From assembly GCA_018436855.1 (NCBI GenBank), contig JAHDKO010000029.1, positions 13,157 to 77,156 on the forward strand: a stretch of 64,000 bases of DNA, read 5' to 3'. The position numbers and the translations under genes were made by a program. This document shows, piece by piece, positions 10,144-36,042 of this stretch. Origin of the DNA: Deltaproteobacteria bacterium (GTDB lineage Bacteria; Desulfobacterota; Desulfomonilia; UBA1062). The notes under the pieces were generated by a model. The model did not search any database, was not told where the DNA came from, and worked only from the letters and a program-made list of their open reading frames with translations. Position 1 is the first letter of the stretch. The number at the start of each line of letters is the position of its first letter.

Positions 10144-10184
10144 ACGGCACCCGCCTTTTCCCGGACTCGGGTCTTGCCCCGTCC

Positions 10185-17516: not shown

Positions 17517-19607
17517 TCATGATACCATTCCCAGGTACCTCACCCATTCGCGGGTGTCAGCCAGACCCTGATCTATTCCCGTATCCGGGCAGCAGGAAAG
17601 CGTGCTCCTGGCACGGGCGTCCGAATACACCGCATCCTTTGCAAAGAGCCTGAGCTCATCCGGCGAGGGGGTGATCTTTACCCGGTGCTCGACCACGCGC
17701 ATCAGGGCATCGACGGCATCCACCCGCTCGGCGAGCAGCTTCACGGGCTTGATGAACCGCTTCTTTACCATTCCGCCCAGGGTGCGCACCGGTGTCATGG
17801 CCCAGGTGGCGGCGCCCGCCCTCTTCGCCCTGATCACCCTTAGGGGCGGCAGGCCCAGGGCCGCGTTGAACCTCATGAAATACTCGTTCCAGGTGAGGAC
17901 CTCCGGGCCGTTGATGTTGAACACCTTGCCCTTCGCGTCCGCGAAGTCCAGGGCACCCAGGATGGTCCTCGCCAGATCGTCCACATAAACGAGGTTGCAC
18001 CTGCCCTCGCCGTAGCCTTCGTAGACCCCTCCCTCACCGGCCAGAAACATGGCAGCGAAGCGCAGGCTCCAGCTCGCGCTGAAGGGCCCGTACACGATCG
18101 AAGGCCTGAAGATGGTGATGGGGAGCCCTTTTTCCCGGTATTCCCAGCAGACCTTTTCCGAATCGATCTTCATCCGGTTGTAGGGGTTTCCGGTGTAACG
18201 ATACGGGCTGTTCTCGTCCACGACACCGCCGGCATCGCCGTAGACATCCGCGGTGCTGAGATGGATGAAATGGGATATGCCCTTCTTCAGCGACGCGTCC
18301 AGCAGGTTCCTTGTGCCCTGGACCGTGACCTCGGGCGTGCCCTTGGCGCAGTGCACGACATGGGTGATGCCTTCCAGCGCGCGTTCGGTCCGGGCGGGGT
18401 CCGTGAGGTCCAGGACAGCGGTCTCCACCGGGAACCTCCCCAGCCGCGCCGCGCTCGACCACTGGTGCACACCAGCCCTGACCGGGTAGCGTGCCTCCGG
18501 GTCCAGGTGGGCCATCTCCACGATCCGCCCCCCGATAAATCCGGTGGCCCCGGTGACGAGGATCCTGCCCGGTTGCCGTGCCTGTGAACCTCTCGCTGAG
18601 GAGGGCCCTATCCAGACCTTTTTGTCCCAGGGAAGATCGAGCCGCGATCTTCGCCCGTAGCATTCGTGGATGAACTCGATCGAGTCGAGCACGTCGCTCC
18701 CGCTGACCAGGGGTTTCGCACTGCCCTGGAGCACCTGGAGAAAGTTTTCCACGATGGGTGCCACAAACCCCGGATAATTCCTGGAGACACTCGCGAGCTT
18801 GTGCTCGCTCATGGTTCCGCCGCTGTCCTCAAGGCAGACTCTCTTCCAGTCGAAGATGCGGCCCGAGACCCTGCCACGGTCTCCTGTCACCCGGTAGCGG
18901 TTGCCCAGATCGCTCAGCCGGCTCAGGGTGATATTGAGCGTGCACCCGTCCTTGTGCGCGCGGATCCTCACCATCGACTCCGGCCCGCCGTAGGAGTCGT
19001 CCCGCATCTCTTCGAGCACGGGCTTTGCCCCCAGCCACCAGCAAATGGTGTCGATGACGTGCGCGCCGAGGTCCATCAGGACCCCCCGGGATGAGACCTT
19101 CGGATCCACGGCGAATCCCGTGGCGCTCGGCCAGCCGAAGACGTTCCCCTCAACATATTCGATGCCTTTGAGCCTGCCCAGCCGGCCCGAGGCGATGATC
19201 TCCCGGACCTCCCTGAACGAGGGGAACATCCTGCGGGTATTGTTGACGCACAGGGCCGCCCCCTGTTCGCGGGCCTTCCGCACCATCTCCCTCGCGTGCT
19301 CGGGCAGCACGGCAAGGGGCTTCTCGCACAGCACGGAAACGCCTGCGCCGAGGCACTCCATGGCCACCGGGTGGTGGAGGTGATTGGGCAGGAGGATGAC
19401 CGCGCCCCGGATATCAGGGAGCACGTCATGGAAGTCGTCCCTGACCATGCCCCCCCCCAGCTCTGCACGGGTCTCTTCGGCGCCGTCCCTGTCGGTGTCC
19501 ACCAGATACAGATTGTCTTTCAGGCCCTGATATCTCCGCAGCGCGGGAACATAGTATCTCCGTGCCGCGGCGCCGCAACCGATGATCGCTATCTTTGGTA
19601 TGCGCAT
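17517..19607 (-). CDS. bifunctional fusion: N-terminal Gfo/Idh/MocA-family oxidoreductase plus C-terminal NAD-dependent epimerase/dehydratase (SDR)
   Basis: The start is taken at MRIPKIAIIGCGAAARRYYVPAL (AAAGGAG RBS); the ORF-track upstream extension is R-rich. The N-terminal half has a Rossmann fold plus the EKPLA motif. The second half has GRILVTGATGFIGGRIV, the YNRMK catalytic pair and an NAD-epimerase fold. Confidence 0.8.
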   Translation of the reverse strand: MRIPKIAIIGCGAAARRYYVPALRRYQGLKDNLYLVDTDRDGAEETRAELGGGMVRDDFHDVLPDIRGAVILLPNHLHHPVAMECLGAGVSVLCEKPLAVLPEHAREMVRKAREQGAALCVNNTRRMFPSFREVREIIASGRLGRLKGIEYVEGNVFGWPSATGFAVDPKVSSRGVLMDLGAHVIDTICWWLGAKPVLEEMRDDSYGGPESMVRIRAHKDGCTLNITLSRLSDLGNRYRVTGDRGRVSGRIFDWKRVCLEDSGGTMSEHKLASVSRNYPGFVAPIVENFLQVLQGSAKPLVSGSDVLDSIEFIHECYGRRSRLDLPWDKKVWIGPSSARGSQARQPGRILVTGATGFIGGRIVEMAHLDPEARYPVRAGVHQWSSAARLGRFPVETAVLDLTDPARTERALEGITHVVHCAKGTPEVTVQGTRNLLDASLKKGISHFIHLSTADVYGDAGGVVDENSPYRYTGNPYNRMKIDSEKVCWEYREKGLPITIFRPSIVYGPFSASWSLRFAAMFLAGEGGVYEGYGEGRCNLVYVDDLARTILGALDFADAKGKVFNINGPEVLTWNEYFMRFNAALGLPPLRVIRAKRAGAATWAMTPVRTLGGMVKKRFIKPVKLLAERVDAVDALMRVVEHRVKITPSPDELRLFAKDAVYSDARARSTLSCCPDTGIDQGLADTREWVRYLGMVS

Positions 19608-19621
19608 GGTTCTCCTTTTCT

Positions 19622-20767
19622 TCATCCCTGCCTGCCGGCCAGCGACAGATAGAGATCCTGTGTCTTTCCGACCATCGATGGTGCCGAGAAGCGTTCGTTC
19701 ACGAGATTCCTGCCCTCTTGCGCCATGGCCCGCGCTGTCTCGGGCATGGTGATGAGATCGCGCATCCTCCTGGTCAGACCGGTGGTGTCGCCGGGCCCCA
19801 CCAGGTACCCGGTCCGGCCGTCCCGGACCAGCAGGGGGATATCGCCGACCGCAGTGGCAAGCACGGGGATGCCGCACGCCATTGCCTCGAGCATCACATA
19901 GGGCAGCCCTTCGGTCAGCGAAGGGATGACGAGATAGTCGATGGAGTCGTACACGCGGCGCATGTTTTTCCTCACCCCGCAACAGCGGACCCGCTCTTCG
20001 ATGCCCAGAGCCCGGATGCCGCTCTGTATGCGCTCCCGCTCCGGTCCGTCCCCCACGATGAGGCCGGTGATGCCCGGAAACTCGTGGGCAAGGGTTTCAA
20101 AGGCATGGAGAAAGAACATGTGTCCCTTGTCCGGATACAATCTCCCGATCACGGCAAAGACCCGGTGATTCCCGTTGCTCGGGAGCGGAAGCGGAGATTC
20201 GTGATCGTCACCGCACAGGTCGAGGACGCCGATGTCGAGGCCGTTCTGGATGACCCGGATCTTTTCCGGCTTTAAGCAGCTGCCCTCGAGCCTGGGACGG
20301 AGATCCTCGGACACGGCGATGACCGTGTCGAACCGCGGGTAGACCAGGTTCTCGGTGAACGAGAGGTAGAGCCTCTTTACAAAAGAATCCCGCGTGGAGC
20401 CGTGAGCGGTGGCAACCCTCCTGACCCTTCCGTCCGGCGTGGCCAGGACACCATAGAAGTCGGACTTGAAGTCGTGGGTATGGATCAGGTCGATCTCCCG
20501 TTCCCGGATGAACCTGCCCAGATGCCGGATTGCGCGCCAGTCGAGCCTGCCCCGCACCCGCACGCTCTCCACATGCATGCCCGACCGTTCTGCAGCGGCC
20601 ATCAGATGACGGCTCCGGCCGTCACCCCGGTCCATGCACATGAGCGAGCAGTCAAAGACCTCCCGGTCCATATTCCTGCCCAGGGTCAGGATAACCCGCT
20701 CGCCCCCGAACATGCCTCCGCTGTCGCGGATATGCAGAACCCGCACCCTTTTCGGGGACGGGTTCAC
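19622..20767 (-). CDS. glycosyltransferase family 4
   Basis: 381 aa GT4 fold with GT4 N-terminal domain RVLHI...GGE and C-terminal EGLPYVMLEAMACGIPVLATAVGDIPLLVRDGRTGYLV. Confidence 0.85.
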   Translation of the reverse strand: MNPSPKRVRVLHIRDSGGMFGGERVILTLGRNMDREVFDCSLMCMDRGDGRSRHLMAAAERSGMHVESVRVRGRLDWRAIRHLGRFIREREIDLIHTHDFKSDFYGVLATPDGRVRRVATAHGSTRDSFVKRLYLSFTENLVYPRFDTVIAVSEDLRPRLEGSCLKPEKIRVIQNGLDIGVLDLCGDDHESPLPLPSNGNHRVFAVIGRLYPDKGHMFFLHAFETLAHEFPGITGLIVGDGPERERIQSGIRALGIEERVRCCGVRKNMRRVYDSIDYLVIPSLTEGLPYVMLEAMACGIPVLATAVGDIPLLVRDGRTGYLVGPGDTTGLTRRMRDLITMPETARAMAQEGRNLVNERFSAPSMVGKTQDLYLSLAGRQG

Positions 20768-20933: not shown

Positions 20934-21959
20934 TCATCGGACCGCGCTCCTTTTCAGATGCGCCTCCCGGTGCGCTGCCGATCCGCGCGCCATGTCCTCC
21001 AGGAGCCACGCGAGCGCTGATCGTTTGATCTCCCATTCCCTCGCGCGCTCCGCCTTGAGCTCCCTGACCTCCTGCACAAGCCGCTCGCGGTCTCGCAGCA
21101 GCGCCCGGATCGAATCACGGATGCCCTCTGCGGTGTGCGGCGTATACACTGCCCCCTTGTTGAAGTAACGCCTGAGCGCCCGGGTGTCGGAGAGGATCTG
21201 CGGCTTTTCCACGGACACCGTCTCGTAGGCCCCGCAGACCAGGCAGCCTTCGCGCTCGGTCAGGTCGATGGTCGCATCAACGGAGTTGAGCATCTCGACA
21301 TAGCGTGCCTCCGGGATATAGCCCGTCAGGGAAACATTGGCCGGCAAAAGGCCGGGGTCGATGTTTTTCTTGCAATAGTTGCCGGTCACATAGATGTGCA
21401 CATCCGAGTCGAGCATACGGGCCGCATCGAACACCAGGTGATACGGCTCATCTTCGGCATAGGAACAGATGAAGAGGATGTTGTGCCTGCCCTTGAGCGC
21501 TGCGGGGGGCGTGCGCGGGATATCGGGTATCCGGTCCTGGAGGATGAACGGTCTGCCCTGGTTTCTTTTCACCTGCTCGTGCAGTTCCCGGTTCGTGACC
21601 AGGGTGAGATCGGAGTGCTTCTGGATGTATGCGCTCAGCCTCATGAGATGCGGGGATCTTCCTTCCGCGGGGAAGAGCCCTGCGTTGTGGGCGTCCACAC
21701 AAACACTGAAACCGGCGGCCCTTTTTATGGTGACCAGAAAGAAAGAGAGCACGATCGAGGGGTTCTGGCAGCATACCAGACCGGGCCGTTCCTTCAGGAG
21801 CACGGCGCAGGTCCTCAGGAGGCCGGTTGCATACTTCCCGGCCGGGTTTTTCAGCTCATCGATCTCTTTGAATTCGTAGAGTCTGATCCCCAGGGCCCGG
21901 CTGATCTCCCGGTTTCTCCTCTGGTTTTCCCATGTGATCCATATCGCGTTCATAGTCAT
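20934..21959 (-). CDS. glycosyltransferase, GT4-like two-domain
   Basis: The start is taken at MTMNAIWITWENQRR (ATG at 21959). The C-terminal domain has sugar-nucleotide binding blocks. It overlaps the upstream gene by about 100 nt, so the start is uncertain. Confidence 0.65.
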   Translation of the reverse strand: MTMNAIWITWENQRRNREISRALGIRLYEFKEIDELKNPAGKYATGLLRTCAVLLKERPGLVCCQNPSIVLSFFLVTIKRAAGFSVCVDAHNAGLFPAEGRSPHLMRLSAYIQKHSDLTLVTNRELHEQVKRNQGRPFILQDRIPDIPRTPPAALKGRHNILFICSYAEDEPYHLVFDAARMLDSDVHIYVTGNYCKKNIDPGLLPANVSLTGYIPEARYVEMLNSVDATIDLTEREGCLVCGAYETVSVEKPQILSDTRALRRYFNKGAVYTPHTAEGIRDSIRALLRDRERLVQEVRELKAERAREWEIKRSALAWLLEDMARGSAAHREAHLKRSAVR

Positions 21960-23082
21960 ACCCCAAAATTTCGTGATAAAACGACTCGTAGCGATCAATG
22001 ACCCGGGGCCAGTCATAGCTCCGGGCAATGATCTGCCTTCCCTGCCCTCCCATGTCCTTTCTGAGGCGGTCGTCCTTGAGCAGGATGCAGAGCTTCTCCG
22101 CCAGGGCGCGGTGATCCCCAGCCGGCACGAGGAAACCGTTCACACCGTCTTGCACCAGCTCGGCGTTCCCTCCCACCGACGTTGCCACCACCGGGAGGCC
22201 CGAGGCCATGTACTCCAGGATGGAGTTGCAGAAGCCTTCCGAATCAGATGAGATGACCCCGATATCCCACGATCTGATGGTCCCGGGCACGTCGGTGACG
22301 GCGCCGAGAAAATTCACCTGCCTGCCGATACCCAGCTCTCGGCTCAAGGCCATCAGCTCGCCGCGCTGGTTTCCGTCTCCGGCAATGCAGAACCGCACGC
22401 CCGGGACAGCCTTGAGCACCTCGAAAGCAGCCCGGATAAAGATATCCACCCGTTTGACCCGCCGGTTGAAGTTTGCCAGGATTCCGACACAGGGGCGGCT
22501 CTGAGTCTCCTGAGACACCACCGGTGCGCTCCCGGGCGCCTCCCGGCCGTCAAAGAGGCAGAAGTCGATTCCGTTGTAGATCACGTGAATCCGGTCGGGG
22601 TCCACCAGCTCGTCGGACGCCACCTGGCGTTTGACCGCCTGCGAGTTCACCTGAAAATGGTCCACCAGCCGGTCAGCCTGCCGGAGCAGCAGGAGCAGGG
22701 CGCGGGAATGCCAGAATCCCAGGTCCCTTCTGCAGCACACAATTTTTTTCACACCAGCGAGCTTGCCGGCGAGGAGCCCCACGAACTGCGCGTCGACAAA
22801 GTAGGTCTGGACAATATCGATACGCCTCTGTCTCAAGAACCGGACGAGCTCGATGGTGCGGCCGATGCACTGTATGCTGAGAAGCGAAGGGATGCCGATC
22901 TGCCGATAGCTGAAGCAGTTGTCCCGTGGCTGGAAATAGGCGTTGGGCGGCCGGAGGCTGACGAGGTAGTTCTCGAACCTCTCCTGAGGCAACGACGCCA
23001 TAAGGCTCAGGAGCTGCTTTTCAGTGCCCCCGATGGAATTGATGGTATCAATGAGAAACGCTATACGTATTTTTCGATCCAT
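21856..23082 (-). CDS. glycosyltransferase family 4
   Basis: 408 aa: MDRKIRIAFLIDTINSIGGTEKQ..., EGFCNSILEYMASGLPVVATSVGGNAELVQDGVNGFLV. Confidence 0.85.
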   Translation of the reverse strand: MDRKIRIAFLIDTINSIGGTEKQLLSLMASLPQERFENYLVSLRPPNAYFQPRDNCFSYRQIGIPSLLSIQCIGRTIELVRFLRQRRIDIVQTYFVDAQFVGLLAGKLAGVKKIVCCRRDLGFWHSRALLLLLRQADRLVDHFQVNSQAVKRQVASDELVDPDRIHVIYNGIDFCLFDGREAPGSAPVVSQETQSRPCVGILANFNRRVKRVDIFIRAAFEVLKAVPGVRFCIAGDGNQRGELMALSRELGIGRQVNFLGAVTDVPGTIRSWDIGVISSDSEGFCNSILEYMASGLPVVATSVGGNAELVQDGVNGFLVPAGDHRALAEKLCILLKDDRLRKDMGGQGRQIIARSYDWPRVIDRYESFYHEILGYDYERDMDHMGKPEEKPGDQPGPGDQTLRIQRDR

Positions 23083-23124: not shown

Positions 23125-24243
23125 TCACACATCCCAGAAAACCTTGTCACCGTCTCCAAAGGTATAAAACCAGTTTTCGCCCTTCCCGATCCCTGCAGGC
23201 CGGCCTGCGGCCCCGGAATGGATGTACTTGAGCGCTCCGGGGTTTTCCCTTGCGTGCACAAACCCCATCGTCTTGAGCACGCGGGCAAACCTCCTGTCCG
23301 TGCACAGCACTTCCAGCGTGTCGGGGCCGGTCTTCTCGATCTCGAGCACGGCCCGCCTCATCAGGGCCCTGAACAGATCTGCATCCCGGGGAGAGCAGAG
23401 AAAATCAAAGATGGTGGAGATCCTCCTGCCGTCCTGCGCGCGCCTGGTCCTGAAGACCAGGTATGCCTGCACATTATCCCCCTTTACGCAGATCAGCCTG
23501 ACGAAACGGGCGCTTGGGCTGTCTGCAAACTTCCAGTTCAGGATGGCGCCGTTGCGATGCGCGATAAAGGCGAACTCGTGCTTCACGGCGTGAAACAATT
23601 CATCTATCCGCTCATCGAAACCATCCGTGAGCTCGATGCGATATCCCCGGCCGGAGAAATCAAACGCCTTTTTCTCCAGCCGGTAGAGCAGCGAGAGGAC
23701 CTTTCCGGCCGACTGCTCGACAGCGGCGTTGATGAGGCGATATCGGGTTTTCACCATGTTCCTCAGGCTATACCCCCGCACATAGGTGGGGAGATTCTCC
23801 ACGGGGAGCCACCCGCACTTTCCGAAGACATGGCTGTTGGCGGCGTTCATCCACACCGCAAGGGAAAACTCGGGCCTGTTCTGAAGAATTGCCTGCACAA
23901 ACGCCCTGCCCACGCCTTTGCCTCTCATCTCCGGGGCGACCATGGTATCGTGGTAGATGAACCCGTCCACATCGCGGCCTGAGACACTGAATCGAAACGG
24001 CATCAGACCCTCGTAGGCAACCACCCTGCCGTCCAGCACGAGCACCAGGTAATCGTCGCGGGTGCTGCTGAACGGGTTTCCGCTCAGCAGCCGGTGAAAC
24101 GCGCGCGCCCTTTCCGAGGCAAACGCCTCTCCGGCCTGGGCATTCCAGAAACGCTCAAAGACGCGCAGGTCGCCCTGCCGGAACCGCCGCATGCATTGGG
24201 CGCAGCCATCGGCGCCCTGATCGGGATATCCGGTGGTATCCAT
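23125..24243 (-). CDS. two-domain GNAT or FemAB-related acyltransferase, resembling PEP-CTERM-locus-associated FemAB-like proteins
   Basis: 372 aa. The N-terminal half has the acyl-CoA motif VAPEMRGKGVGRAFV; the second half is a FemAB-like helper domain. Confidence 0.65.
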   Translation of the reverse strand: MDTTGYPDQGADGCAQCMRRFRQGDLRVFERFWNAQAGEAFASERARAFHRLLSGNPFSSTRDDYLVLVLDGRVVAYEGLMPFRFSVSGRDVDGFIYHDTMVAPEMRGKGVGRAFVQAILQNRPEFSLAVWMNAANSHVFGKCGWLPVENLPTYVRGYSLRNMVKTRYRLINAAVEQSAGKVLSLLYRLEKKAFDFSGRGYRIELTDGFDERIDELFHAVKHEFAFIAHRNGAILNWKFADSPSARFVRLICVKGDNVQAYLVFRTRRAQDGRRISTIFDFLCSPRDADLFRALMRRAVLEIEKTGPDTLEVLCTDRRFARVLKTMGFVHARENPGALKYIHSGAAGRPAGIGKGENWFYTFGDGDKVFWDV

Positions 24244-24344: not shown

Positions 24345-25436
24345 CTATTCAAGGGCGGAACCATGTCCCGGGCACGCCCTGTTCGCGCGGCTTATGGACC
24401 GTTTCACCCATACCATGTGATGGACGTTCATCACGAATCGATGGTCGCTCATGGCACTTTCGATTCCATAGCGGTGGTAGCAAAAGCGATCGGTATCCGG
24501 GTAGTTCGGTCCTCTCATCATGGTTACCGAGCAGTATATGTTGTTGCGGATCAGAAGATCCCGGGTCATCTCCCCGAAATCCCCTGCTTCGCCGTTGGGA
24601 TAGCTGAACAGGGTGCACGGCCTTCCCGTGATTGCGCACACGCGGTCGATGGAAGACCGGATCTCGTGCTCCTGGGCATCTTCGGTCAGCAGACTGAGGA
24701 TCGAGTGGGTATGGGTGTGAGCGCCGAACTCGATGAGCCCGCTCTTGTGCATCTCCTGTATGTCACGGCTGTTCAGAATACGGAAGGGACTGTTCTTAGG
24801 GAGCCCGCTGCCGGGGTCGAATCCGAGTGCGGCAATGATGTCCCCGACCTCCTGCACCAGAACATCCTGCGGCATCTCCTTGAGAATTCCCTGAAGCGTC
24901 AGGCAGGCATGAACCCGGTTTCCGGGGTTTGTCAGATCGAAGCGCCGGTCACGCCACACAATGCTTCTTTTGTTTGTCTCGGAGAATGCGCGGTTCAGGG
25001 CACAGTACCAGATGGTGTCGTCGGTGTCGGTCAGACTCGTGACGAGAAACACCGTGGCCGGAAGCCCCAGTTCCTTCAAGACGGGAAAGGCGTTGTCGTA
25101 TACGTTCTGAAAACCGTCGTCAAAGGTGATGGACAAGAGCGGCAGCACCGGTTTTTTTCGTGAGACCGCAAGATCGAGCGCCTGAGAGAGCGGCACCACG
25201 GTGAAGTGCCGCTTTACATAGAGCATCTGGCTGATGAACCTGTCCCTGGCGATGAAGCACTCATCCGGGATCGGCAGGTCTGCATTCCTGACACCGTGGT
25301 ACGTGATAACGGTATGTGCCTTCCTGAAGAGTGTTCTGTTCAGAAACCGTGGTAACCGGGTTATGGCAAGTCCTTGGTATATTCTCTCTTTTGTTTCACG
25401 AGATAAGAGTTTGATTCTTCTGTCCGTGTTTTCCAA
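24345..25436 (-). CDS. polysaccharide deacetylase, CE4/NodB-type
   Basis: ITFDDGFQNVYDNAFPVLKELGLPATVFLVT and HTHTHSIL histidine motifs are present. Confidence 0.85.
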   Translation of the reverse strand: MENTDRRIKLLSRETKERIYQGLAITRLPRFLNRTLFRKAHTVITYHGVRNADLPIPDECFIARDRFISQMLYVKRHFTVVPLSQALDLAVSRKKPVLPLLSITFDDGFQNVYDNAFPVLKELGLPATVFLVTSLTDTDDTIWYCALNRAFSETNKRSIVWRDRRFDLTNPGNRVHACLTLQGILKEMPQDVLVQEVGDIIAALGFDPGSGLPKNSPFRILNSRDIQEMHKSGLIEFGAHTHTHSILSLLTEDAQEHEIRSSIDRVCAITGRPCTLFSYPNGEAGDFGEMTRDLLIRNNIYCSVTMMRGPNYPDTDRFCYHRYGIESAMSDHRFVMNVHHMVWVKRSISRANRACPGHGSALE

Positions 25437-26715
25437 GGGTATCGGAATTCCTGTTTATTTCGCCGGGCAGCTGCTGTTTCTGCTCCCGGCTTCCTGCCCG
25501 TCCTTCACCGTTCTGAGATGCCGGCACCGTCCGAGCCGGCATGGTTCCGGATCGGGCCCTGTGATTGCTCTGCGGCCGGTTCTCCTGTTTCGGTGAACCG
25601 GCCCCTGCCCGGGCGTGCATCCGGACCGTAATTCCGTCACGGATCCGCCGGGCGATATAGGGGCCTATCTTGTGCACCTTTCGCGCCCTTTTCATCTGAT
25701 ACATCATCTGAATCCACCGGGTATGGAACTCATCGTACATCGTCCAGAAAGCGGCATACCGGCTCATGGCGATGGGGGCGGACAAGATCCGCATCCGGGC
25801 CTCGAAACGCCCGGGATCGTCCACAACGGCTACGCGCAGGTCTTTTGCGGTCCTGCACCCGGTCAGACTCACCCGGTGGATGCCTGTCTCCGAGATATCG
25901 GCCGATAAAACAGCGGATTCTCTCCTGGCACGATTGAGCTTCATGAAAGAATGCACCACCTCGCCCTCGCCGTTCACCCACCGCCAGTCGAGATCGGAGA
26001 ACAGGAAGTTGCCGAGGCTGTAGGCGATATAGCCCTGACGATAGCGTTCGATGCCCTGCAGCACGTGGGGATGATGCCCGATGACAAGGCCGGCCCCCAT
26101 GTCGATGATAGCGCGGGCGGTCCGAACCTGATCGGGGGCCGGGTAGCGCCAGTCTTCCTTTCCCCAGTGCAGACAGACCGCGACGGCATGGACCCTGCCC
26201 TCGAGCGATGCGATGGCATGCGCGAGCTCCTCGAGGTCGAGCGGGGCGATGCCCCTCTCCGGACCGGAGGCATAAAACGGCGAGTCGATCGTCACCTCTG
26301 ATCGCGACAGAACGCCCAGAGAGATGCCCTTCCGTTCGATGATCGCAGGCCGGTTCGCCTCTTCGAGGCAGGCGCCCGCTCCGAACCATCCTATGCCCTG
26401 CGCGTCCAGGCAGGCCATGGTTTCGTACATGGCCTGCTCTCGGTAATCCAGGATATGGTTGTTGGCGAGCGACAGGGCGGTGAACCCGGCATCCTTCATG
26501 CCGGCGGCATATCCCGGATGAGCCTTCAGGCTCACCTTGCCGGGATACGGTTCACCTCCGAGGCACAGGGGGGCTTCGAGATTCCCGATCAGGATGTCGT
26601 GTCCCGCGAGCGTCTCCCGGATGCACCCGAACGGGTAATGGGGGCCCTTTGCCTCGTACAGTGCGTCGTAACCGTGTGTCAGGGCGATGTCGCCTACGAA
26701 ACCGATCTTGATCAT
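25396..26715 (-). CDS. CapA-family (PGA_cap) metallophosphatase-like capsule biosynthesis protein
   Basis: The start is taken at MIKIGFVGDIALTHGYDA (AAGGA RBS); the ORF-track N-terminal 271 aa are R/H-rich artefact. It contains GHDILIGNLE, NNHILDY and GHHPHVLQG. Confidence 0.75.
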   Translation of the reverse strand: MIKIGFVGDIALTHGYDALYEAKGPHYPFGCIRETLAGHDILIGNLEAPLCLGGEPYPGKVSLKAHPGYAAGMKDAGFTALSLANNHILDYREQAMYETMACLDAQGIGWFGAGACLEEANRPAIIERKGISLGVLSRSEVTIDSPFYASGPERGIAPLDLEELAHAIASLEGRVHAVAVCLHWGKEDWRYPAPDQVRTARAIIDMGAGLVIGHHPHVLQGIERYRQGYIAYSLGNFLFSDLDWRWVNGEGEVVHSFMKLNRARRESAVLSADISETGIHRVSLTGCRTAKDLRVAVVDDPGRFEARMRILSAPIAMSRYAAFWTMYDEFHTRWIQMMYQMKRARKVHKIGPYIARRIRDGITVRMHARAGAGSPKQENRPQSNHRARSGTMPARTVPASQNGEGRAGSREQKQQLPGEINRNSDTLGKHGQKNQTLIS

Positions 26716-26744
26716 GGCTTTGTCCTTATGTCTTTGTATTTGAA

Positions 26745-28112
26745 TCACTGAGGCAGCGGGATCAGCCTCTTGGCAAAGAGATACTTGCCGGATTTTTCGC
26801 GGGGTATCTCGTCCACGAACTCGTAGGTGATCCGCATCTTCGCGCCAAAGAGCTTTTCCACGATTCTGGCCTGGTGATCCATGACCTCTTTGCCTGGAAT
26901 CAGATCGCGCGTCATCTTCAGGGTGATGTGATCCGCGGCATCTTGGATGGCCTGCATCTGGCCGAAAAACCCGGGGGCCGCATTCACCATGTACATCACC
27001 ATGGCAATGGTCGATACCAGCCTGCCCTCGGGCGTGACGAACACATCGAGCGCGCGGCCCACGATCTCTTTCATCAGGGGCAGGCCCCTGCCGCAGGGAC
27101 AGGTCCTGTCGCTCAGGACCGCGGTGTCGCCCATGTAGTAGCGGATCAGGGGCATGCCGTAGTTCAGCAGGTCGGTGACGAGCACGTTGCCCGCCTGCTC
27201 CCCGGACGAGGCCATGGGCCGGGGATCGTCCAACTCCAGGTAGAGGCACTCGGCATTGATGTGCATGCCCGAGCGGGCACCGCATTCCTGGGCCATGGGA
27301 CCTGCCTCGCGCGAGCGGTACGAGTCCTGGATATCGCAGTGGAACATATCGGCCACCAGACGGCGCTGATGGTCGTAGAGCGGCTCGCCGGTGGTGATGA
27401 GGCCCTTGAGCCGGTATCCGTCGATTCCTTTTCTTGCCATGTATTTCGCGAGCTCGTGGATGGGGCTGCTGAACGCCAGGATGGTGGTGGGTTTTTTCAG
27501 CTTCAGCACGTTCAGGTATTCGCTGCACGCCCGGTCATCGATCACGGCTGACGCAAAGAGCACGATCCGTTTGTAGAGCTCGTTTCGCATCCTCGACTTG
27601 AGCGTGCCGTAGCCCATGAAGTCCTGGTGGGCCGGCCAGACCAGCCCCATATAGTCGCCGAAGTCCCATCCCGCCCACCGGCCGAACCGGTAGATGGCCG
27701 CCTCTTTCATGGACAGGCATTTGTTGTCGCGGTAAAACCGCATCTTCACCTCCGAGGTCCCGCCGGTCTCGGCGTAGTGGATGTCTTCCGGGCGATAATT
27801 GCGCGCGATGAGACGGGGCATGTTGTCCCGTATCTGCTCCTTGGTGAGCACGGGTATCTTGAGCAGCTGGTCCGGATGCCGGAAGGTATAGGGGTTGAAG
27901 CCGGCGTCGTCGAACCTCTTCCGGTAGAATTCCGTGTTCTCGTAGGCGTGCACCAGGAGATTTTTCAAGCGATCCCGCTGCAGCTCGGCGATCCGGTGGT
28001 AGGGCCAGAACTGGCTCTCTTCGAGTGAGCGCAGGTTACCCATGATCCCGCCGAGACCCTCCCGGCGTGCGATGAGAGGAAAGGTGACGTTCTTGATCAC
28101 GTTTTTGAGCAT
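26745..28112 (-). CDS. phenylacetate-CoA ligase-like adenylate-forming enzyme, CapK/PaaK family
   Basis: 455 aa: RNYRPEDIHYAETGGTSEVKMRFY, TTGEPL, LVTDLLNYGMPLIRYYMGD, CPCGRGLP. Confidence 0.8.
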   Translation of the reverse strand: MLKNVIKNVTFPLIARREGLGGIMGNLRSLEESQFWPYHRIAELQRDRLKNLLVHAYENTEFYRKRFDDAGFNPYTFRHPDQLLKIPVLTKEQIRDNMPRLIARNYRPEDIHYAETGGTSEVKMRFYRDNKCLSMKEAAIYRFGRWAGWDFGDYMGLVWPAHQDFMGYGTLKSRMRNELYKRIVLFASAVIDDRACSEYLNVLKLKKPTTILAFSSPIHELAKYMARKGIDGYRLKGLITTGEPLYDHQRRLVADMFHCDIQDSYRSREAGPMAQECGARSGMHINAECLYLELDDPRPMASSGEQAGNVLVTDLLNYGMPLIRYYMGDTAVLSDRTCPCGRGLPLMKEIVGRALDVFVTPEGRLVSTIAMVMYMVNAAPGFFGQMQAIQDAADHITLKMTRDLIPGKEVMDHQARIVEKLFGAKMRITYEFVDEIPREKSGKYLFAKRLIPLPQ

Positions 28113-28133: not shown

Positions 28134-29420
28134 TTAGATATTCTGCAGGGAAACGCGCCTCTCCTGCAGCAGGATGTTCTGAACGGCCACGGTCAGGGCT
28201 GCCATCAGGAACCAGAACCAGATAAAAGACCCGTGGGTGAAATTGCCCACGAACAGCCTGACGAAGAGCCCGAGCTGTATGGCGGTGATGATGTTGAAAT
28301 AGAACGCATCCCGGGGGCTGCCGCGGACGAGGTTCCGCTTGATGGCGCCCGTTCGCCTGAAGACCAGGTAGATGAGGTAGAACCAGGCAATGCTCGCAAG
28401 ACCGAGCTCGCCGAACAGCTCGCCGTAGAGGTTGTGGGCATAGAAATAATAATGGAAGAATTGCCTGCGTGCCTCTGCATAGCAGCCGATGCCCACGCCG
28501 AGCACGGGCCGCTTGATCATCATGGAGATCCCGTTGAGCAGTCCCAGATACCTATCCGAGGTGGTCCTGCTTGCGTGGACTCCCTCCTGGATGGTGGACA
28601 TGTGGGAGAGATAGTCCGACGCGGCCAGGGTGAGGAAAAAGACGATGAAGACCCCTGCGATGAGACCGGCCTTGAGCCGGTCTCGGGAAAAATAGACCAC
28701 GCCCATGGCGGTCACCATAAGCCCCAGGAAGCCACCCCTGGATTTCGAGGCATACACCCCGAACACCAGCAGGGCGAGAATCATGAGCGAGGTGACCCTG
28801 ACGAATCTCTTTGTGTTCGTCATGGCGAAGTAAAGGAGCACGGGAATGACCTGGTTGAGGGTGTTGGCAAGGGCCACATGGCCGGATGCGGCCCCGAATC
28901 TCCCGTACGCGACGGCGCCGTACATCTGCTCGCTTACGTCACCCGAAAGATAGTTCACCACGGGCTCATAGGCGATCCACGCGGTGACCAGGATAAAGGC
29001 CCAGAGAATCCTGGCAAGGTCTGCGGTTGAGCGCACCGTGGACACGATCATGATATAGAAGACCGTGATCTTCAGGAGAAAATATCCTCCCTCGTTCCAG
29101 GAAACGACAGGGTTCACGGAAAAGGCCACGGAGAACATTCCCACGGCGAAGAGCACCCAGAAGGCCTTGTTGATGGGGTTGAACCCGGGCAGGAAATTGC
29201 CGAGACCTTTGCCGGAAACAAGGATCCTGAAGAGCACATAGGCAGCGACGAGCAGCTCGAACCGGATGGCCCCGAGCAGGGGATACATCTCGCCCAGCTT
29301 TGCGTTGAGGACAAAGAAGTACGCGATCACCCCATACACCGGGTTCTTGAGCGACATGACCAGGAGCAGGACACACACGATGGGCAGGATGATCTGAACG
29401 GATTCGGCGGAAGGCAGCAT
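28134..29420 (-). CDS. O-antigen ligase/polymerase-like (Wzy/WaaL family) polytopic membrane protein
   Basis: 428 aa with about 10 TM helices and the periplasmic loop GGFLGL...H..Y typical of the O-antigen ligase domain. Confidence 0.75.
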   Translation of the reverse strand: MLPSAESVQIILPIVCVLLLVMSLKNPVYGVIAYFFVLNAKLGEMYPLLGAIRFELLVAAYVLFRILVSGKGLGNFLPGFNPINKAFWVLFAVGMFSVAFSVNPVVSWNEGGYFLLKITVFYIMIVSTVRSTADLARILWAFILVTAWIAYEPVVNYLSGDVSEQMYGAVAYGRFGAASGHVALANTLNQVIPVLLYFAMTNTKRFVRVTSLMILALLVFGVYASKSRGGFLGLMVTAMGVVYFSRDRLKAGLIAGVFIVFFLTLAASDYLSHMSTIQEGVHASRTTSDRYLGLLNGISMMIKRPVLGVGIGCYAEARRQFFHYYFYAHNLYGELFGELGLASIAWFYLIYLVFRRTGAIKRNLVRGSPRDAFYFNIITAIQLGLFVRLFVGNFTHGSFIWFWFLMAALTVAVQNILLQERRVSLQNI

Positions 29421-29605: not shown

Positions 29606-31090
29606 TCATTCCCACGGCCTCACTACGCCCTCGGCGGGCCGGAAGATCGATCCGATCCGGCTCTTTTCCTCGGGAGTGAAGAAATTCACGAGCAGGAGCA
29701 CGAGCGGGAACATGAAAACCAGCAGCGTCTTGACGGCGACATCGGCATAGACCGAGGCCGTGTTCACCTGCAGCGAGAGAAAATAGATGACCGAAGCCGC
29801 CAGAAAGATCTTTCCCATCCGGATGAACTCGAAGTGGATCTTGAAGAACCGGTTGCTGAAGAAATAGGTGGAGGCGGCCTTGTAGATGTAGGCGACGAGC
29901 GTTGCGTACGCTGCGCCGTACATCCCGTATCTCGGGATGAGCAGAAAGTTCAGGATCAGCACGAGTGCCGCGTTCGAGACATTGATATAGGCCAGATATT
30001 TGGTTTTTTTCTCGATGATGATGCCCATGTTGAAGTGATAATGGAAGGTGAAGATCACGTTTGCCAGCACGATGATCGGGACGATCCTGTACGCCGGCCA
30101 GAACGCCCGGTCCGCGATGACGACCAGGATCTCCTCGGTGAGCACGGCCACGCCCAGGGCAACGAACGAGATAAACAGAAGGAAGTAGGTGAATATCCTG
30201 CCGAATATCTCCTCGGCGTTCTCCTGGTTGTAGACCTCGAGCCTCCGGGGCTGCCAGACCTGGTTGAAGGGCTCGGACACGAAGGTGCCGGGCAGGATGC
30301 CAAAACGGTATCCGAGCGAGTAGATCCCGGCCTCGGCAATGGAGCAGTAACCCTTGATGAAGAACCGGTCCGAGAGGTTCACGATGAGCGTGCCGAACTG
30401 CGACGGGATCATGGGGAGACCGAACTTGAGCATGTCTTTGATGATCCTCGGCGAATACCCGAGCCCGGCCTTCACCAGCTGCGGCACGTTGAGGACCAGG
30501 GACATGACGATGGAGGTGATGAGCGTGCTCAGAAGAATGCCCAGGACCCCCATGCGCAGCACGATGATGAAATAGATGTTCAGGGCAATGGCCAGGACGA
30601 GCCTGAAGAGCGAGAGCACAACGAACTGGACGGACTTCAGGGTCACCCTGAGGTAGTTGAGCCCGATGGTGTTGATGGTCTGGAACCACAGGGACGCAAA
30701 TGCAATCAGGAAATAGACATAGAGCCCTGAGGAGTCGAGAATGTAGCGGGCCATGACCGGCGAGCCCAGGGAAAGGATGCACACGAAGATCAGCCCGAAT
30801 ATGCCCAGGAATATGTAGGATGAGCTCAGCACCATGTTCCGGTCGCTCTCCTCGGTATAATCGAAATAGAACCGGTAAAAGGCGGATGAAATGGCGGTAG
30901 CCAGGAGGATCCCCAGGATGTCCGTGCTCAGGCCCACGAGCTCCTTGATGCCGTATTCACGGGTGGAGAGGTACTGGGTGTAGATGGGCAGGAGGAGGAA
31001 TCCCACGATCTTGTTGGCACTCGTCCCGATCCCGTAGATGATCGAGTGCCTGGCCAGCAGTTTTGACTCATTCCCGACGCTTATTGCCAC
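29606..31090 (-). CDS. Wzx-type oligosaccharide/polysaccharide flippase, MOP superfamily
   Basis: 494 aa with about 12-14 TM helices. The N-terminus ARHSIIYGIGTSANKIVGFLLLPIYTQYLSTREYG is typical of the polysaccharide biosynthesis protein family. Confidence 0.8.
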   Translation of the reverse strand: MAISVGNESKLLARHSIIYGIGTSANKIVGFLLLPIYTQYLSTREYGIKELVGLSTDILGILLATAISSAFYRFYFDYTEESDRNMVLSSSYIFLGIFGLIFVCILSLGSPVMARYILDSSGLYVYFLIAFASLWFQTINTIGLNYLRVTLKSVQFVVLSLFRLVLAIALNIYFIIVLRMGVLGILLSTLITSIVMSLVLNVPQLVKAGLGYSPRIIKDMLKFGLPMIPSQFGTLIVNLSDRFFIKGYCSIAEAGIYSLGYRFGILPGTFVSEPFNQVWQPRRLEVYNQENAEEIFGRIFTYFLLFISFVALGVAVLTEEILVVIADRAFWPAYRIVPIIVLANVIFTFHYHFNMGIIIEKKTKYLAYINVSNAALVLILNFLLIPRYGMYGAAYATLVAYIYKAASTYFFSNRFFKIHFEFIRMGKIFLAASVIYFLSLQVNTASVYADVAVKTLLVFMFPLVLLLVNFFTPEEKSRIGSIFRPAEGVVRPWE

Positions 31091-31157: not shown

Positions 31158-32579
31158 TTACGGGAGCGGGTGTTCACCGGGGACCCCCGCCCTCCGGATA
31201 TTCGACTCGTTGAAGATGTGTATGAGGTCCTTCACCTGGACCGTGACGTCATATCGGGAATTGTCGAAGCCGGGCGCGAGTTTCTCATTTTCTTGTTCCC
31301 GGTTTTGTTCTTCCCGGGCCCGGCCTTTTCGGAGATATTCTTCATATGCATTGTCGAGTGCCTTGAGAAGGGACGGATAGTCGTCGTGCGGGGCGTGGTA
31401 GAAGTTGCCGTAGTCCCGGATGATATCGAGGGCCTCGCTCTCCTGCATGATTGCGAGGATCGGACGTTTCACCGCCATGTACTCGTAGAGCTTGGAGGTG
31501 ATGACCCCGGCGCTCTTGCTGTCGTGTCCGATGATGAGGAGGAGAAGATCGGCGCCCTTCTGTTTGCGGATGATCTCGTCGTGCGGGATCAGCCCGCTCG
31601 TCCTGACCACATGCTCCAGCCCCAGCTCATGCGCCAGGGCTCCCGCCTTCTCGCATCCCATGCCGTAGAAGAGGGCCTGGACGTTGTCCCGCACCGAGGG
31701 ATCCTTGGTCTCCAGCCACCTGGCCAGGCCGTGGATGAAAAAGTCCGGGCTGATGGTCCCGTAGAGTGTCCCGCCGAACAGGATGGTGAACCTGTCGAAG
31801 CTGTCCGGCTGTATGTTTTTGAAAAGGGCCGGGTCAAAGCCGTTTCTGACCACCACGAACTTGCCGCCCATGGCGGGATAGCGATTTTTCAGAGATTGCC
31901 TGTGAGACTCGGTGACCAGAATCACGGTGTCCGCGAACCTGGCAATGATCCTCTCCAGCAGGCCGTGCAGCCACAGCTCTATGCGGAACAGCTCCTCGGT
32001 ATGAAAATTGTCCACAATGGGGTCGCGGAAGTCGGCCACCCAGGGCTTGCGGAAGATCTTTGCCAGGATGAGCCCCGCGAGATGCTCTGAATGAGGGGGC
32101 GAGGTCGTGAATATCACATCGAAGTCTTCCTTGCGCATGAGCCTGATGCCCCTGATCACGGCAAAAGGGATCCAGAACACCATGTGATCGGGGATGGAAA
32201 AGATCTTGAGCAGCGCCGACAGGAAAAACCTCTCGACCCTCTTCACCGCTCCGGCCACCCCGGCCCGGGAGCCGGGATCGCTCAGTGCCGCACGGGCGGC
32301 TTCTCTCCGGGCATCCCTTGCCCGATATCGCTGGATCATTCTCCAGATGTCGAGAATATAGGTCCTGTGTATCCGGACCTCCGGCGGTATACGTTTCATG
32401 AGACTATGGTCACTGTGGATATCCTTTGATTCATTGATCGTGATGACCGTGGGCCTCCAGCCGTTAGCCGGGAGATACCGGCAGAAACGCATGGTCCGAT
32501 AGACCCCTGCGTGCGCGATGGGAGGAAATCCATATGCAATGACCAGCACCTTTTTTTGTTCGAGATCCGCTGTATCCAT
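31158..32579 (-). CDS. glycosyltransferase family 4
   Basis: 473 aa with a GT4-like N-terminal domain (KVLVIAYGFPPIAHAGVYR) and a C-terminal GT1/4 domain. Confidence 0.8.
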   Translation of the reverse strand: MDTADLEQKKVLVIAYGFPPIAHAGVYRTMRFCRYLPANGWRPTVITINESKDIHSDHSLMKRIPPEVRIHRTYILDIWRMIQRYRARDARREAARAALSDPGSRAGVAGAVKRVERFFLSALLKIFSIPDHMVFWIPFAVIRGIRLMRKEDFDVIFTTSPPHSEHLAGLILAKIFRKPWVADFRDPIVDNFHTEELFRIELWLHGLLERIIARFADTVILVTESHRQSLKNRYPAMGGKFVVVRNGFDPALFKNIQPDSFDRFTILFGGTLYGTISPDFFIHGLARWLETKDPSVRDNVQALFYGMGCEKAGALAHELGLEHVVRTSGLIPHDEIIRKQKGADLLLLIIGHDSKSAGVITSKLYEYMAVKRPILAIMQESEALDIIRDYGNFYHAPHDDYPSLLKALDNAYEEYLRKGRAREEQNREQENEKLAPGFDNSRYDVTVQVKDLIHIFNESNIRRAGVPGEHPLP

Positions 32580-32580
32580 G

Positions 32581-33120
32581 TCACCTCGCTCCTATCTTCC
32601 GTGCAGGGTACCCCGCCAGAACGGTACCGGGCGGGTATTCCTTGCGCCCCACCACGGAGTTTGCCGAAACGACGCACCTGCTGCCCAACACGACACCCGG
32701 CATGACAAATACGTTTGCACCCATCCAGACATCGTCGCCGATGATCACCGGCCTGAAGGTATAGCCCTGATCGTGAACCGGGATGTCAGGATTCTTGTAG
32801 TTATGGTTCTGGGTCCATATCCTCGTATAAGGCCCCAGAAGCACGTTATTGCCCATGATGACGCCGCCGCCCGCCTGAATATAGTTGAAGAGTCCGATGT
32901 CGACGCGGTCCCCGCATTTGATGCACCCGGGATTCAGGATGGTGGTCCCCGGGTGAATGCTCAGGCCCCTGCCCGCCTTCCCGAACCTTCTGGTGTACCA
33001 CTCACGCCTGAGGACAACGCCGAAGTCGCCCGGGATGTTTCGCAGCAGCAGTGCAATGTACTGGTCCCTTCCCGTGCGGGACGCCAGGTCCCAGTACAGG
33101 TATTTAAGGATCTCGATCAC
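32581..33120 (-). CDS. hexapeptide-repeat O-acetyltransferase, WcaF/WbbJ/maltose acetyltransferase-like
   Basis: 179 aa with left-handed beta-helix repeats (IGDDVWMGANVFVMPGVVLGSRCVVSANSVV). The ORF-track start is a GTG. Confidence 0.75.
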   Translation of the reverse strand: MIEILKYLYWDLASRTGRDQYIALLLRNIPGDFGVVLRREWYTRRFGKAGRGLSIHPGTTILNPGCIKCGDRVDIGLFNYIQAGGGVIMGNNVLLGPYTRIWTQNHNYKNPDIPVHDQGYTFRPVIIGDDVWMGANVFVMPGVVLGSRCVVSANSVVGRKEYPPGTVLAGYPARKIGAR

Positions 33121-34154: not shown

Positions 34155-34162
34155 GCTCGTGC

Positions 34163-35406: not shown

Positions 35407-36042
35407 TCACAAGCCGGTAAAATAATTGCCGAGAAGGGGCATGAGCTGGCCTCCGAACATCGTGAGCCTGTCTTCGTCGCCCGTGGTATCATCGCCGAGC
35501 GCCACCGATATTCTCACCCACACGGTTGAGGGGTGTTTGCCGGTAATGCTGCGAATCACCTGGTAGAACCGGTTGACGCTGTTGCGCGGGATGGTCTTGT
35601 CGCCGGTCTGCCACCAGGCATAGACCAGCTCCTGCCTTTCGAGCTTTTCGATCACCATCCGGTTGACCATGGCGTGCCGCGGGCCAAGTTTTCTCGACAC
35701 GATATTGTTTTCCTTCATGGACCATCCCTGCCCCGTGTAGCATACCTCCGGGGCATGAACCATGTCGGCGGAGTTTACATTCTGATAATATGCAAGATAC
35801 ACACTGACCTCATCTTGCTCACAACGGTATGTCCTGAACACGACCCTCTGAGCCCCGATCGCCTCTTTGAGGCCCTCGATGTCGGCATCGACGTCCGAGC
35901 CGATCCACTGCCCGATGGTGGGAGGGATTGCGTATGTGCAGGTTTGTTCTGAATACAGGGCCTTTTTCAGGCCGTGGGAAGAGCCGTACACACTCAGCGC
36001 AAAAACCAGGACATATATTGCATTCTTTTTCGTTCTATCCAT
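35407..36042 (-). CDS. EpsI-family exosortase-associated protein, copy 2
   Basis: 211 aa from MDRTKKNAIYVLVFALSVYGSS (signal peptide). It contains CYTGQGWSM and VYAWWQTGDKT blocks paralogous to 11021..11662. The upstream 323 aa of the ORF-track ORF are rejected as an R-rich out-of-frame artefact. Confidence 0.75.
   Translation of the reverse strand: MDRTKKNAIYVLVFALSVYGSSHGLKKALYSEQTCTYAIPPTIGQWIGSDVDADIEGLKEAIGAQRVVFRTYRCEQDEVSVYLAYYQNVNSADMVHAPEVCYTGQGWSMKENNIVSRKLGPRHAMVNRMVIEKLERQELVYAWWQTGDKTIPRNSVNRFYQVIRSITGKHPSTVWVRISVALGDDTTGDEDRLTMFGGQLMPLLGNYFTGL

Follow-up and report, generated by a model that had tools for sequence, protein, structure and literature searches.

When amino acids decorate bacterial polysaccharides, the charge, antigenicity and matrix behaviour of the polymers change, and the enzymes installing such groups are mostly unknown. 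For CapK-like proteins the first genetic assignment came in July 2026 from Vibrio cholerae: profiling of lipid-linked intermediates revealed that VpsH (VC0924), named there as CapK-like and related to phenylacetate-CoA ligase (PaaK), is needed for the addition of glycine to N-acetyl-L-gulosaminuronic acid (L-GulNAcA) on a bactoprenyl-PP-disaccharide (PP, pyrophosphate), the chemistry of activation being left open (PMC13463779). Here, we describe a CapK-like gene that is directly followed by the gene of a CapA-like protein (Pfam family PGA_cap) in a stretch of 64,000 nucleotides from a Deltaproteobacteria bacterium (assembly GCA_018436855.1, contig JAHDKO010000029.1, positions 13,157 to 77,156), which is called the window throughout at its full length. 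Both genes sit in one tight operon within an exosortase-linked Wzx/Wzy exopolysaccharide (EPS) locus. We suggest that CapK may join an amino acid to the polysaccharide repeat unit by an amide bond and that CapA may epimerise it, a combined model to which we assign a probability of roughly 0.4.

Two described systems bear on the CapA-like protein. MslH, the epimerase of the C-terminal Trp of a lasso peptide (PDB 8GQ9), is Ca(II)-dependent and holds the free C-terminal carboxylate of its substrate at the metal; mutagenesis revealed its dependence on Asp11, Glu44, Asn87, His88, Asp91, His259, His261 and His295 (PMC10406935). For poly-gamma-glutamate (PGA) the discoverers of MslH have proposed CapA as the epimerase making D-Glu (PMC8179263). 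In Bacillus subtilis pgsBC without pgsA yields 95% L-PGA, and with pgsA a D/L proportion of 75/25 is obtained (PMC6029982). Genetic evidence indicates that PgsA determines how much D- and L-Glu the product contains (PMC6029982, PMC8179263), and PgsA, the CapA protein of PgsBCA, has an ATP-dependent amide ligase as partner.

The outcome proposed here for CapK, namely a uronic acid to which an amine or amino acid is attached by an amide bond, is also that of the ATP-grasp amidoligases decorating capsules, which differ from CapK by an unrelated fold and an acyl-phosphate mechanism. The capsule of Campylobacter jejuni HS:2 is decorated by such an ATP-grasp amidoligase. The serine transferases of Escherichia coli K40 and K54 belong to the same group (cited in PMC13463779), and the window contains ATP-grasp genes besides CapK. 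A link between CapK and exosortases is already known, as are the individual protein families: a “possible CapK protein” was listed by Haft et al. in 2006 among the genes tracking PEP-CTERM/EpsH by phylogenetic profile (PMC1569441). This is the exosortase/EPS association also seen in the window, with neither a CapA partner nor a function proposed at that time. The annotation “CapA family protein” explains nothing in loci for O-antigens or capsules, for example in an O-antigen cluster of E. coli that holds a capA of unexplained role (PMC10606467). Literature searches found no published description of a CapK and CapA pairing, and the coupling of a CapK ligase with a soluble MslH-like CapA appears to be undescribed until now.

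Gene calls and arrangement of the pair

Genes were assigned from Pfam and NCBIfam scans, AlphaFold2 (AF2) models, Foldseek, homologue alignments and a check for hydrophobic segments. A preliminary description, made from the letters alone, had placed a CapA homologue and a CapK/PaaK-like adenylating enzyme at 25396-28112 between a deacetylase and a Wzy-like gene. These outer coordinates are exact and both genes are on the minus strand, in the same-strand tandem order Wzy_C, CapK, CapA, deacetylase, i.e. not divergent. Their junctions are tight: CapK starts 21 nucleotides (nt) past the stop of the preceding Wzy_C gene, and the ATG of CapA (26715), with AAGGA ahead of it, lies 29 nt past the stop of CapK. 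An open reading frame (ORF) of 710 amino acids (aa) at 27528..25396 was rejected as the CapA gene. Over the first 271 codons this ORF overlaps CapK in a different frame, and every homologue begins with MIKIGFVGD, so the upstream extension is an artefact.

The CapK-like enzyme

The window CapK has no match in the local copy of Pfam, a copy without the CapK_C model; in precomputed annotation PF27533 (CapK_C) is found, among the matches listed, on all but two of 120 homologues, including ones that are 93% identical. Its AF2 model (mean pLDDT, the predicted local distance difference test score, of 87) has the PaaK fold according to Foldseek (E 6e-26 to both BT_0428 and PaaK1), and the best solved relatives are BT_0428, PaaK1/2, NatL2 and AjiA1 with 21-24% identity. 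There is no membrane segment. With its two-domain fold and its adenylation residues the protein can be considered as a member of the ANL enzymes of PaaK fold with an atypical P-loop, TGGTSE, at about aa 116-121 (about 27750..27767, minus strand). Further motifs are SYRSRE (aa 264-269) and CxCGR (aa 338-342), and the residues for adenylation comprise Glu269 (A5), Asp329 (A7), G352-R353 (A8) and, within SGKY, Lys443 (A10). Across 120 homologues the A5 Glu, the A7 Asp, the A8 Arg and CxCGR are retained, and SGKY is found in 115 of them. The preliminary assignment as a PaaK-like adenylating enzyme thus holds. One homologue (P0025) carries the degenerate motifs TGGAAG and DSYQSRG.

PaaK and PaaK-like ligases (BT_0428, PaaK1/2, NatL2, AjiA1, ClxA, HCL) share with the window CapK the two-domain ANL fold and CxCGR as well as the Asp of A7, the Arg of A8 and the Lys of A10. 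Apart from the low identity the window protein differs from them by SYRxRE, by its EPS context and by scores that remain far below all equivalog cutoffs: the DVU_1553 family of NCBIfam reaches 120 bits (cutoff 300, hence sub-threshold), the F390 synthetase model 91 bits (cutoff 459) and the two PaaK models 85 bits (TIGR02155, cutoff 646) and 102 bits (NF041878, cutoff 700). Among the window ORFs that were scanned (about 40, including most with a length of at least 180 aa) no paa catabolic genes were found, and the neighbours of CapK are all EPS genes. The identity of a catabolic PaaK or of an F390 synthetase is ruled out by these equivalog scores and the gene context. A grouping with catabolic PaaK enzymes, which had initially been regarded as fatal to a role in the EPS locus, was not observed; by sequence the protein apparently groups with the CapK_C proteins of EPS loci and not with bona fide PaaK.

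Like the window CapK, VpsH is soluble and PaaK-related, and its gene follows closely on that of the polymerase in a Wzx/Wzy cluster. For comparison the V. cholerae protein was represented by its syntenic orthologue from Vibrio sp. THAF191d. The corresponding region (L175, NZ_CP046066.1 1031982-1053040) is a complete cluster of the vps-I type in the order vpsA-K, with VpsD and VpsF above the cutoffs of their models; the record is an unannotated replicon of 1.85 Mb filed as a plasmid. The orthologue aligns with the window CapK at 24% identity over 373 residues (E 8e-27, hhalign 99.9%), and the hidden Markov model (HMM) of the CapK family gives it 146 bits, compared to 200-790 bits for the remaining scored genes of this family. 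It differs by its canonical P-loop TSGTTG and by DWYGLFE, where the CapK family has TGGT[TS]G and DSYRSRE, and from the window protein also by another N-terminal region of about 80 aa and by the missing CapA partner. Both proteins are, as judged from their sequences, homologous and not orthologues, and function may be transferred from VpsH to the window CapK by analogy only. No CapA-like ORF is present in the 21-kb vps region of THAF191d, where the residue added is achiral glycine.

The CapA-like protein

PF09587 (PGA_cap) matches residues 3-239 of the window CapA with E 7e-67 and 226 bits (cutoff 27), which bears out its early assignment as a CapA homologue. The conserved motifs are D9, N45-L46-E47, N85-N86-H87..D90, H183-W184-G185-x-E187, G213-H214-H215-P-H217 and Y232-S233-x-G235-N236, and these columns from D9 through N236 are invariant in the subfamily alignments. 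Loss of the metal ligands would have spoken against a functional CapA according to the preliminary description; metal and catalytic residues (D9, E47, N86, H87, D90, H183, H215, H217) are in fact all kept. In the AF2 model (pLDDT 84) residues 1-372 are well ordered. There is neither a membrane segment nor a signal peptide, and the entire CapK-linked subfamily lacks the N-terminal signal or anchor found in more distant PGA_cap proteins and has a helical C-terminus. An identity as PgsA-like membrane component was ruled out by the absence of an anchor.

By sequence the closest solved protein is MslH. Residues were mapped by sequence alignment and with the published mutants (PMC10406935): Asp11, Glu44, Asn87, His88, Asp91, His259, His261 and His295 of MslH correspond to D9, E47, N86, H87, D90, H183, G185 and H217 of the window CapA. 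Seven of these eight functional residues, both His/Asp dyads included, are invariant in the CapA subfamily. The sole replacement is at the position of His261, occupied by Gly185 of the family-typical HWGxE motif with E187 close by. Like MslH the window CapA is soluble; differences are the absence of lasso-peptide genes at the locus, other C-terminal helices and a ligase partner in a polysaccharide locus, and the MslH model of NCBIfam (NF038314) reaches 85 bits only (cutoff 700). Compared to PgsA, with which it shares the family PGA_cap and the partnership with an ATP-dependent amide ligase, the window CapA lacks the N-terminal membrane anchor and belongs to a polysaccharide product; moreover its ligase partner has the ANL fold and is unrelated to the Mur-ligase-like PgsB.

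Beyond the catalytic domain the subfamily has a beta subdomain of its own with an insert of 18 residues after GNFLFSD (DLDWRWVNGEGEV in the window), which is missing from signal-bearing PGA_cap proteins. The 67-aa tail that follows probably stems from read-through of the spacer ahead of the deacetylase gene and should be dispensable. In L091, whose CapA is 75% identical, the matching stretch (L091:7117-7320) contains four in-frame stops; being also disordered and restricted to the closest relatives, the tail is unlikely to be a functional domain. The final codons overlap the start of the deacetylase gene, and the tail end KNQTLIS is conserved, probably because it overlaps this start region in another frame.

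Distribution and gene order of the pair

Co-occurrence of CapA and CapK genes turned out to be that of a recurrent module across several phyla and in several gene orders. Pairs were found in metagenome-assembled genomes (MAGs) of Desulfomonilia type, in Acidobacteriota, Planctomycetota, Omnitrophota, Deinococcus and on a Bacteroidota-like contig. The closest relatives are MAGs of Desulfomonilia or “Deltaproteobacteria”. Look-ups anchored on CapK revealed a PGA_cap gene adjacent or one gene off in six of eight homologues. With 65-72% CapK identity (L001-L004) the whole locus is syntenic; at 47-51% (L006, L008, L009, L010, one of them Bacteroidota-like) the loci are otherwise unlike and the order Wzy_C, CapK_C, PGA_cap is kept. 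A Wzy_C gene precedes the pair in most related loci. The EPS locus of L009 (GCA_963986685.1) contains two CapK_C-PGA_cap pairs (10001-12471 and 15020-17427). It also has a FemAB/Acetyltransf_6 gene and a sulfotransferase. Twenty of the best 120 CapA matches are on the same contig as one of the best 120 CapK matches.

Scans anchored on CapA comprised 80 genome loci and 80 metagenome loci, fetched with flanks of 10 kb and 6 kb, respectively, and scored with the HMMs of both families. Wherever the CapA subfamily score reached 295 bits and the upstream flank was long enough, a CapK gene was found in the flank (7/7: L011, L012, L013, L034, L037, L091, L092); the titled genome records among these seven include Acidobacteriota, Planctomycetaceae and Omnitrophota. 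The scan of genome contigs with the subfamily profile gave mostly generic PGA_cap proteins and was therefore used as negative control: in none of the 75 other genome loci, with ordinary signal-bearing PGA_cap proteins, did the fetched flank contain a CapK gene. Seven lower-scoring metagenome loci have a CapK neighbour as well, namely L095 (CapA cut off at the contig end, CapK directly upstream) and six in new arrangements, either convergent or with CapK downstream. Reversed or convergent order is found in L103, L108, L121, L127, L152 and on a plasmid of the cultured strain Deinococcus actinosclerus SJTR (L172, CP029777.1 285020-287458). On this plasmid the pair is divergent in sequence, DM785_18520 (CapA-like, annotated as hypothetical) being directly upstream of DM785_18515 (annotated as “CapK”), and genes for a Wzx-like and a hypothetical membrane protein precede the pair. 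The strain is a possible experimental system. In L012, where the Wzx/Wzy genes are displaced and both deacetylase and GNAT are missing, CapK and CapA are still adjacent.

Plasmid-borne CapA genes of gut Bacteroides and of Bosea were considered as further pairs and rejected, since they have no CapK neighbour. The CapA-family gene of Bacteroides finegoldii (L173) follows folD and that of Bosea sp. F3-2 (L174, plasmid) lies beside genes for an MFS transporter, a proline racemase and an ABC transporter, both outside EPS surroundings; the CapA matches of these two proteins run past the catalytic domain. Regarding CapK homologues elsewhere, those of L005 and L007 have a Methyltransf_33 gene, molybdopterin-oxidoreductase/Aminotran_5 genes and dodecin as neighbours, and the CapK-type gene on plasmid pMETEV01 of Methanohalobium evestigatum (L171) is located in an archaeal glycan locus with glmSMU, GT2 and GT4 glycosyltransferase genes and a Wzx-like gene.

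Putative reaction sequence and alternatives

Identity, fold, conserved residues, solubility, operon structure and repeated neighbourhood of the two proteins rest on observation; substrates, direction of the ligation and epimerase activity are inferred. We suggest that CapK and CapA could be a module of two enzymes in an exosortase-associated EPS pathway of Wzx/Wzy-dependent type, tailoring a lipid-linked or nucleotide-linked repeat unit in the cytoplasm before flipping. CapK and CapA are soluble and VpsH acts on a lipid-linked disaccharide, therefore tailoring takes place most likely at the cytoplasmic face before the Wzx flip. CapK probably carries out amide-forming tailoring of some kind. 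In this moderately likely first step it would adenylate a carboxylate with ATP and form an amide with an amine, and most likely it would, in the manner proposed for VpsH, link an amino acid through its alpha-amino group to the carboxyl of a sugar. With the alternative polarity the adjacent deacetylase would expose an amine on a sugar, and this amine would receive an activated free acid. Amide formation on the polymer had been put forward in the preliminary description. Carboxylate activation with amide formation is indeed the best-supported chemistry, since VpsH is needed for the glycine amidation of GulNAcA, and the adenylation residues of CapK are kept. The site of the reaction has to be revised: none of the CapK, CapA, deacetylase, GNAT and ATP-grasp proteins has a hydrophobic segment, and from the lack of membrane segments or signal peptides in the tailoring enzymes it follows that their substrate should be a precursor in the cytoplasm or a lipid-linked repeat unit and not the polymer.

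The predicted product of CapK is an N-acyl amino acid with free alpha-carboxylate, the same motif as in the C-terminal Trp of MslA and in the gamma-linked Glu of PGA. In a less certain second step CapA would work as a metal-dependent C-alpha epimerase of MslH/PgsA type and not as phosphatase or exporter: the free alpha-carboxylate would be held at the metal site and C-alpha be inverted via the dyads His87/Asp90 and His217/Asp9, resulting in a D-amino-acid decoration. The preliminary description had assigned no role to CapA. The evidence on CapA points to such an epimerase rather than to a partner in amide formation, but that it epimerises the CapK product is put forward tentatively. On this reading ligase and epimerase would make up a unit analogous to PgsB plus PgsA in PGA synthesis, and the absence of CapA from the glycine-adding vps system is in line with it, as weak evidence.

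Several observations weigh against the ligase-epimerase model. No UDP-sugar 6-dehydrogenase was found among the scanned window ORFs, therefore a uronic-acid acceptor, as considered in the preliminary description, is not evidenced locally. The P-loop of the window clade has an acidic end, TGGTS[E/D], whereas 112 of the 120 homologues have TGGT[T/S]G. The CapK family has SYRxRE at the position of (F/Y)GxxE in PaaK and VpsH, hence the substrate or the second half-reaction of CapK may differ, and the identity of 24% with the VpsH orthologue is no closer than that with PaaK-type CoA ligases (21-24%). CapK homologues also occur without CapA: two, 52-53% identical, are outside EPS loci (L005:10001-11413, L007:10001-11401), second CapK_C copies in L003 and L010 have no CapA, nor has the gene of M. 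evestigatum (37678-39039), which is 32% identical to that of the window. In a rough neighbour-joining tree the L005 and L007 proteins are placed next to the EPS clade of Desulfomonilia, a position that suggests their secondary recruitment. Most pair loci share a wider core of hexapeptide acetyltransferase, GT4a, Wzx, Wzy, GT4b and GT4c, so that part of the co-occurrence is inherited synteny. Finally, all residues for a di-metal phosphodiesterase site as in YmdB are kept in the window CapA.

The last point leads to another view of CapA, namely as metallophosphoesterase acting on a phosphodiester or pyrophosphate intermediate or on a mis-formed acyl-adenylate, with CapK as ligase. The calcineurin-like fold and the YmdB-equivalent D9, E47, N86, H183, H215 and H217 together with catalytic H87/D90 (YmdB comparison in PMC10406935) would be in accordance with it, but motif I reads GDIAL and lacks the His of the DxH motif, and the published functional evidence found for PGA_cap proteins concerns stereochemistry and epimerisation and not phosphoester hydrolysis (PMC10406935, PMC8179263, PMC6029982); we consider this explanation as quite unlikely. 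Exchange of N-acyl groups is unlikely as well. Here the cytoplasmic deacetylase would remove the N-acetyl group of an amino sugar and the GNAT protein or CapK would re-acylate the amine, CapK being an acid-CoA ligase or acyl-AMP donor for an unusual free acid and CapA having a separate role. This fits with the prevalence of CoA ligases in the PaaK family, with deacetylase and GNAT genes directly downstream in the window, L001, L003, L011 and L091, with a deacetylase adjoining Wzy in L006, L008, L010 and L095, and with the second CapK_C gene of L003 beside two GNAT genes. However, the pair persists without deacetylase or GNAT in L009, L012, L013 and on the Deinococcus plasmid, the tight linkage with CapA is left unexplained, and CapK-like enzymes of EPS pathways have a single experimental precedent, in which an amino acid is added to a uronic acid (PMC13463779).

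The adjacency could also be without functional meaning, the whole cassette being inherited or transferred as a block, as the larger conserved core of most pair loci might indicate. This is very improbable: the pair outlasts the rearrangement of the core in L012, is duplicated in L009 and occurs with very divergent sequences in other orders and orientations (L103, L108, L121, L127, L152, Deinococcus plasmid), and the 75 ordinary PGA_cap genome loci are without a CapK gene. Hardly to be expected, finally, is that the pair builds or attaches a short PGA-like poly- or oligo-amino-acid chain on the glycan with CapK in place of PgsB and CapA working as in PgsBCA. PGA synthesis defines the CapA family and the window has further amide ligases (ATP-grasp genes at 34286..33117, 5142..4036 and 3978..2767, and an AsnB-like gene); yet no Mur-ligase-like PgsB was found among the scanned window ORFs, a scan that did not reach ORFs as small as pgsC, the window CapA has no membrane anchor, and ANL enzymes normally perform single ligations.

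Returning to ligation followed by epimerisation, the recurrent CapK-CapA cassette would represent a concrete, testable route to amino-acid decorations in environmental exosortase systems, and the soluble CapK-linked subfamily is set apart from the generic “CapA family protein”. If CapA is an epimerase, D-amino acids would reach polysaccharides without a racemase of free amino acids, which would also be relevant to the old question of what role PgsA/CapA plays in PGA synthesis. The generalisation that CapK-CapA is a ligase-epimerase cassette installing D-amino acids on polysaccharide repeat units, as counterpart of PgsB-PgsA, appears rather doubtful to us. If it were true, the whole PGA_cap family would consist of metal-dependent epimerases of N-acyl amino acids with free alpha-carboxylate, and its members would be neither capsule “export” proteins nor phosphatases; CapK ligases for achiral glycine such as VpsH would need no CapA and those for chiral residues would recruit it.

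The surrounding locus

Coordinates of all features are compiled in Table 1. The locus is an EPS locus of the PEP-CTERM-type exosortase, and the window contains two exosortase systems. Between about 37.0 kb and 15.6 kb every gene is on the minus strand. Starting from the head, the operon encodes an exosortase/EpsI fusion, GT2, a RimK-like ATP-grasp ligase, a hexapeptide acetyltransferase, GT4, Wzx and Wzy_C, followed by CapK, CapA, the deacetylase, GNAT, three glycosyltransferases, a GFO/IDH/MocA-SDR fusion and an AsnB-like protein.

Table 1. Features of the window with position, strand and remarks
Feature	Position	Strand	Remarks
Exosortase fused to EpsI	35407..37011	-	534 aa; operon head; EpsI_fam 100 bits (cutoff 42.8)
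GT2 glycosyltransferase	34163..35329	-	
RimK-like ATP-grasp ligase	33117..34286	-	likely true start near 34154
Hexapeptide-repeat acetyltransferase	32581..33120	-	
GT4-like glycosyltransferase (GT4a)	31158..32579	-	belongs to conserved core accompanying the pair
Wzx-type flippase	29606..31090	-	
Wzy_C-domain polytopic membrane protein	28134..29420	-	polymerase or ligase-like; directly upstream of CapK
CapK-like PaaK-fold adenylate-forming enzyme	26745..28112	-	455 aa; ATG start; ribosome-binding site AGGAG upstream
CapA-like (PGA_cap) protein	25396..26715	-	439 aa plus stop; soluble; MslH-like fold
PGA_cap catalytic domain of CapA	25999..26709	-	aa 3-239; Pfam E 7e-67
Subfamily-specific beta subdomain and three C-terminal helices of CapA	25600..25998	-	aa 240-372; contains insert DLDWRWVNGEGEV
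Basic, low-complexity tail of CapA	25399..25599	-	67 aa; aa 373-439; pLDDT below 50; closest relatives only
Polysaccharide deacetylase (Polysacc_deac_1)	24345..25436	-	no signal peptide; 41-nt overlap with CapA stop
GNAT-family acyltransferase	23125..24243	-	372 aa; Acetyltransf_9/1/7 models only
GT4b	21856..23082	-	
GT1-like glycosyltransferase	20934..22028	-	
GT4c	19622..20767	-	
GFO/IDH/MocA oxidoreductase and SDR epimerase/dehydratase fusion	17517..19982	-	ORF overlaps upstream GT4 gene by about 360 nt
AsnB-like amidotransferase	15602..17491	-	
Second EpsI	11021..11662	-	DUF3485/EpsI 183 bits
Second exosortase EpsH	10185..11033	-	Exosortase_EpsH 239 bits
UDP-GlcNAc 2-epimerase	8950..10143		
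Golvesin_C/PKD-repeat protein	5306..8773	-	1155 aa
Two further ATP-grasp genes (Ddl-like; “sugar-transfer associated” ATPgrasp_ST)	2767..3978 and 4036..5142	-	

Some of these gene calls need comment. The N-terminal half of the exosortase-EpsI fusion was matched by no Pfam exosortase model, and in the relatives L001 and L003 exosortase and EpsI are two separate genes. The ATP-grasp gene, placed from the beginning at 33117..34154, is RimK-like according to Pfam and NCBIfam, and the start near 34154 follows from the length of its relatives (342-347 aa). Likewise, the true start of the oxidoreductase fusion is probably near 19610, because its relatives have about 697 aa. The gene at 24243..23125 had originally been called FemAB-like, an assignment that has to be abandoned: it is a GNAT by every model tested, without match to a FemAB model or an NCBIfam family and without a PDB relative below E 0.05.

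The two further ATP-grasp genes lie by the Golvesin_C/PKD protein and the UDP-GlcNAc 2-epimerase, which suggests more amide-type decorations or a second polysaccharide system. Beyond 38 kb the window contains housekeeping genes (Liv transporter, V/A-ATPase, H+-PPase, enolase).

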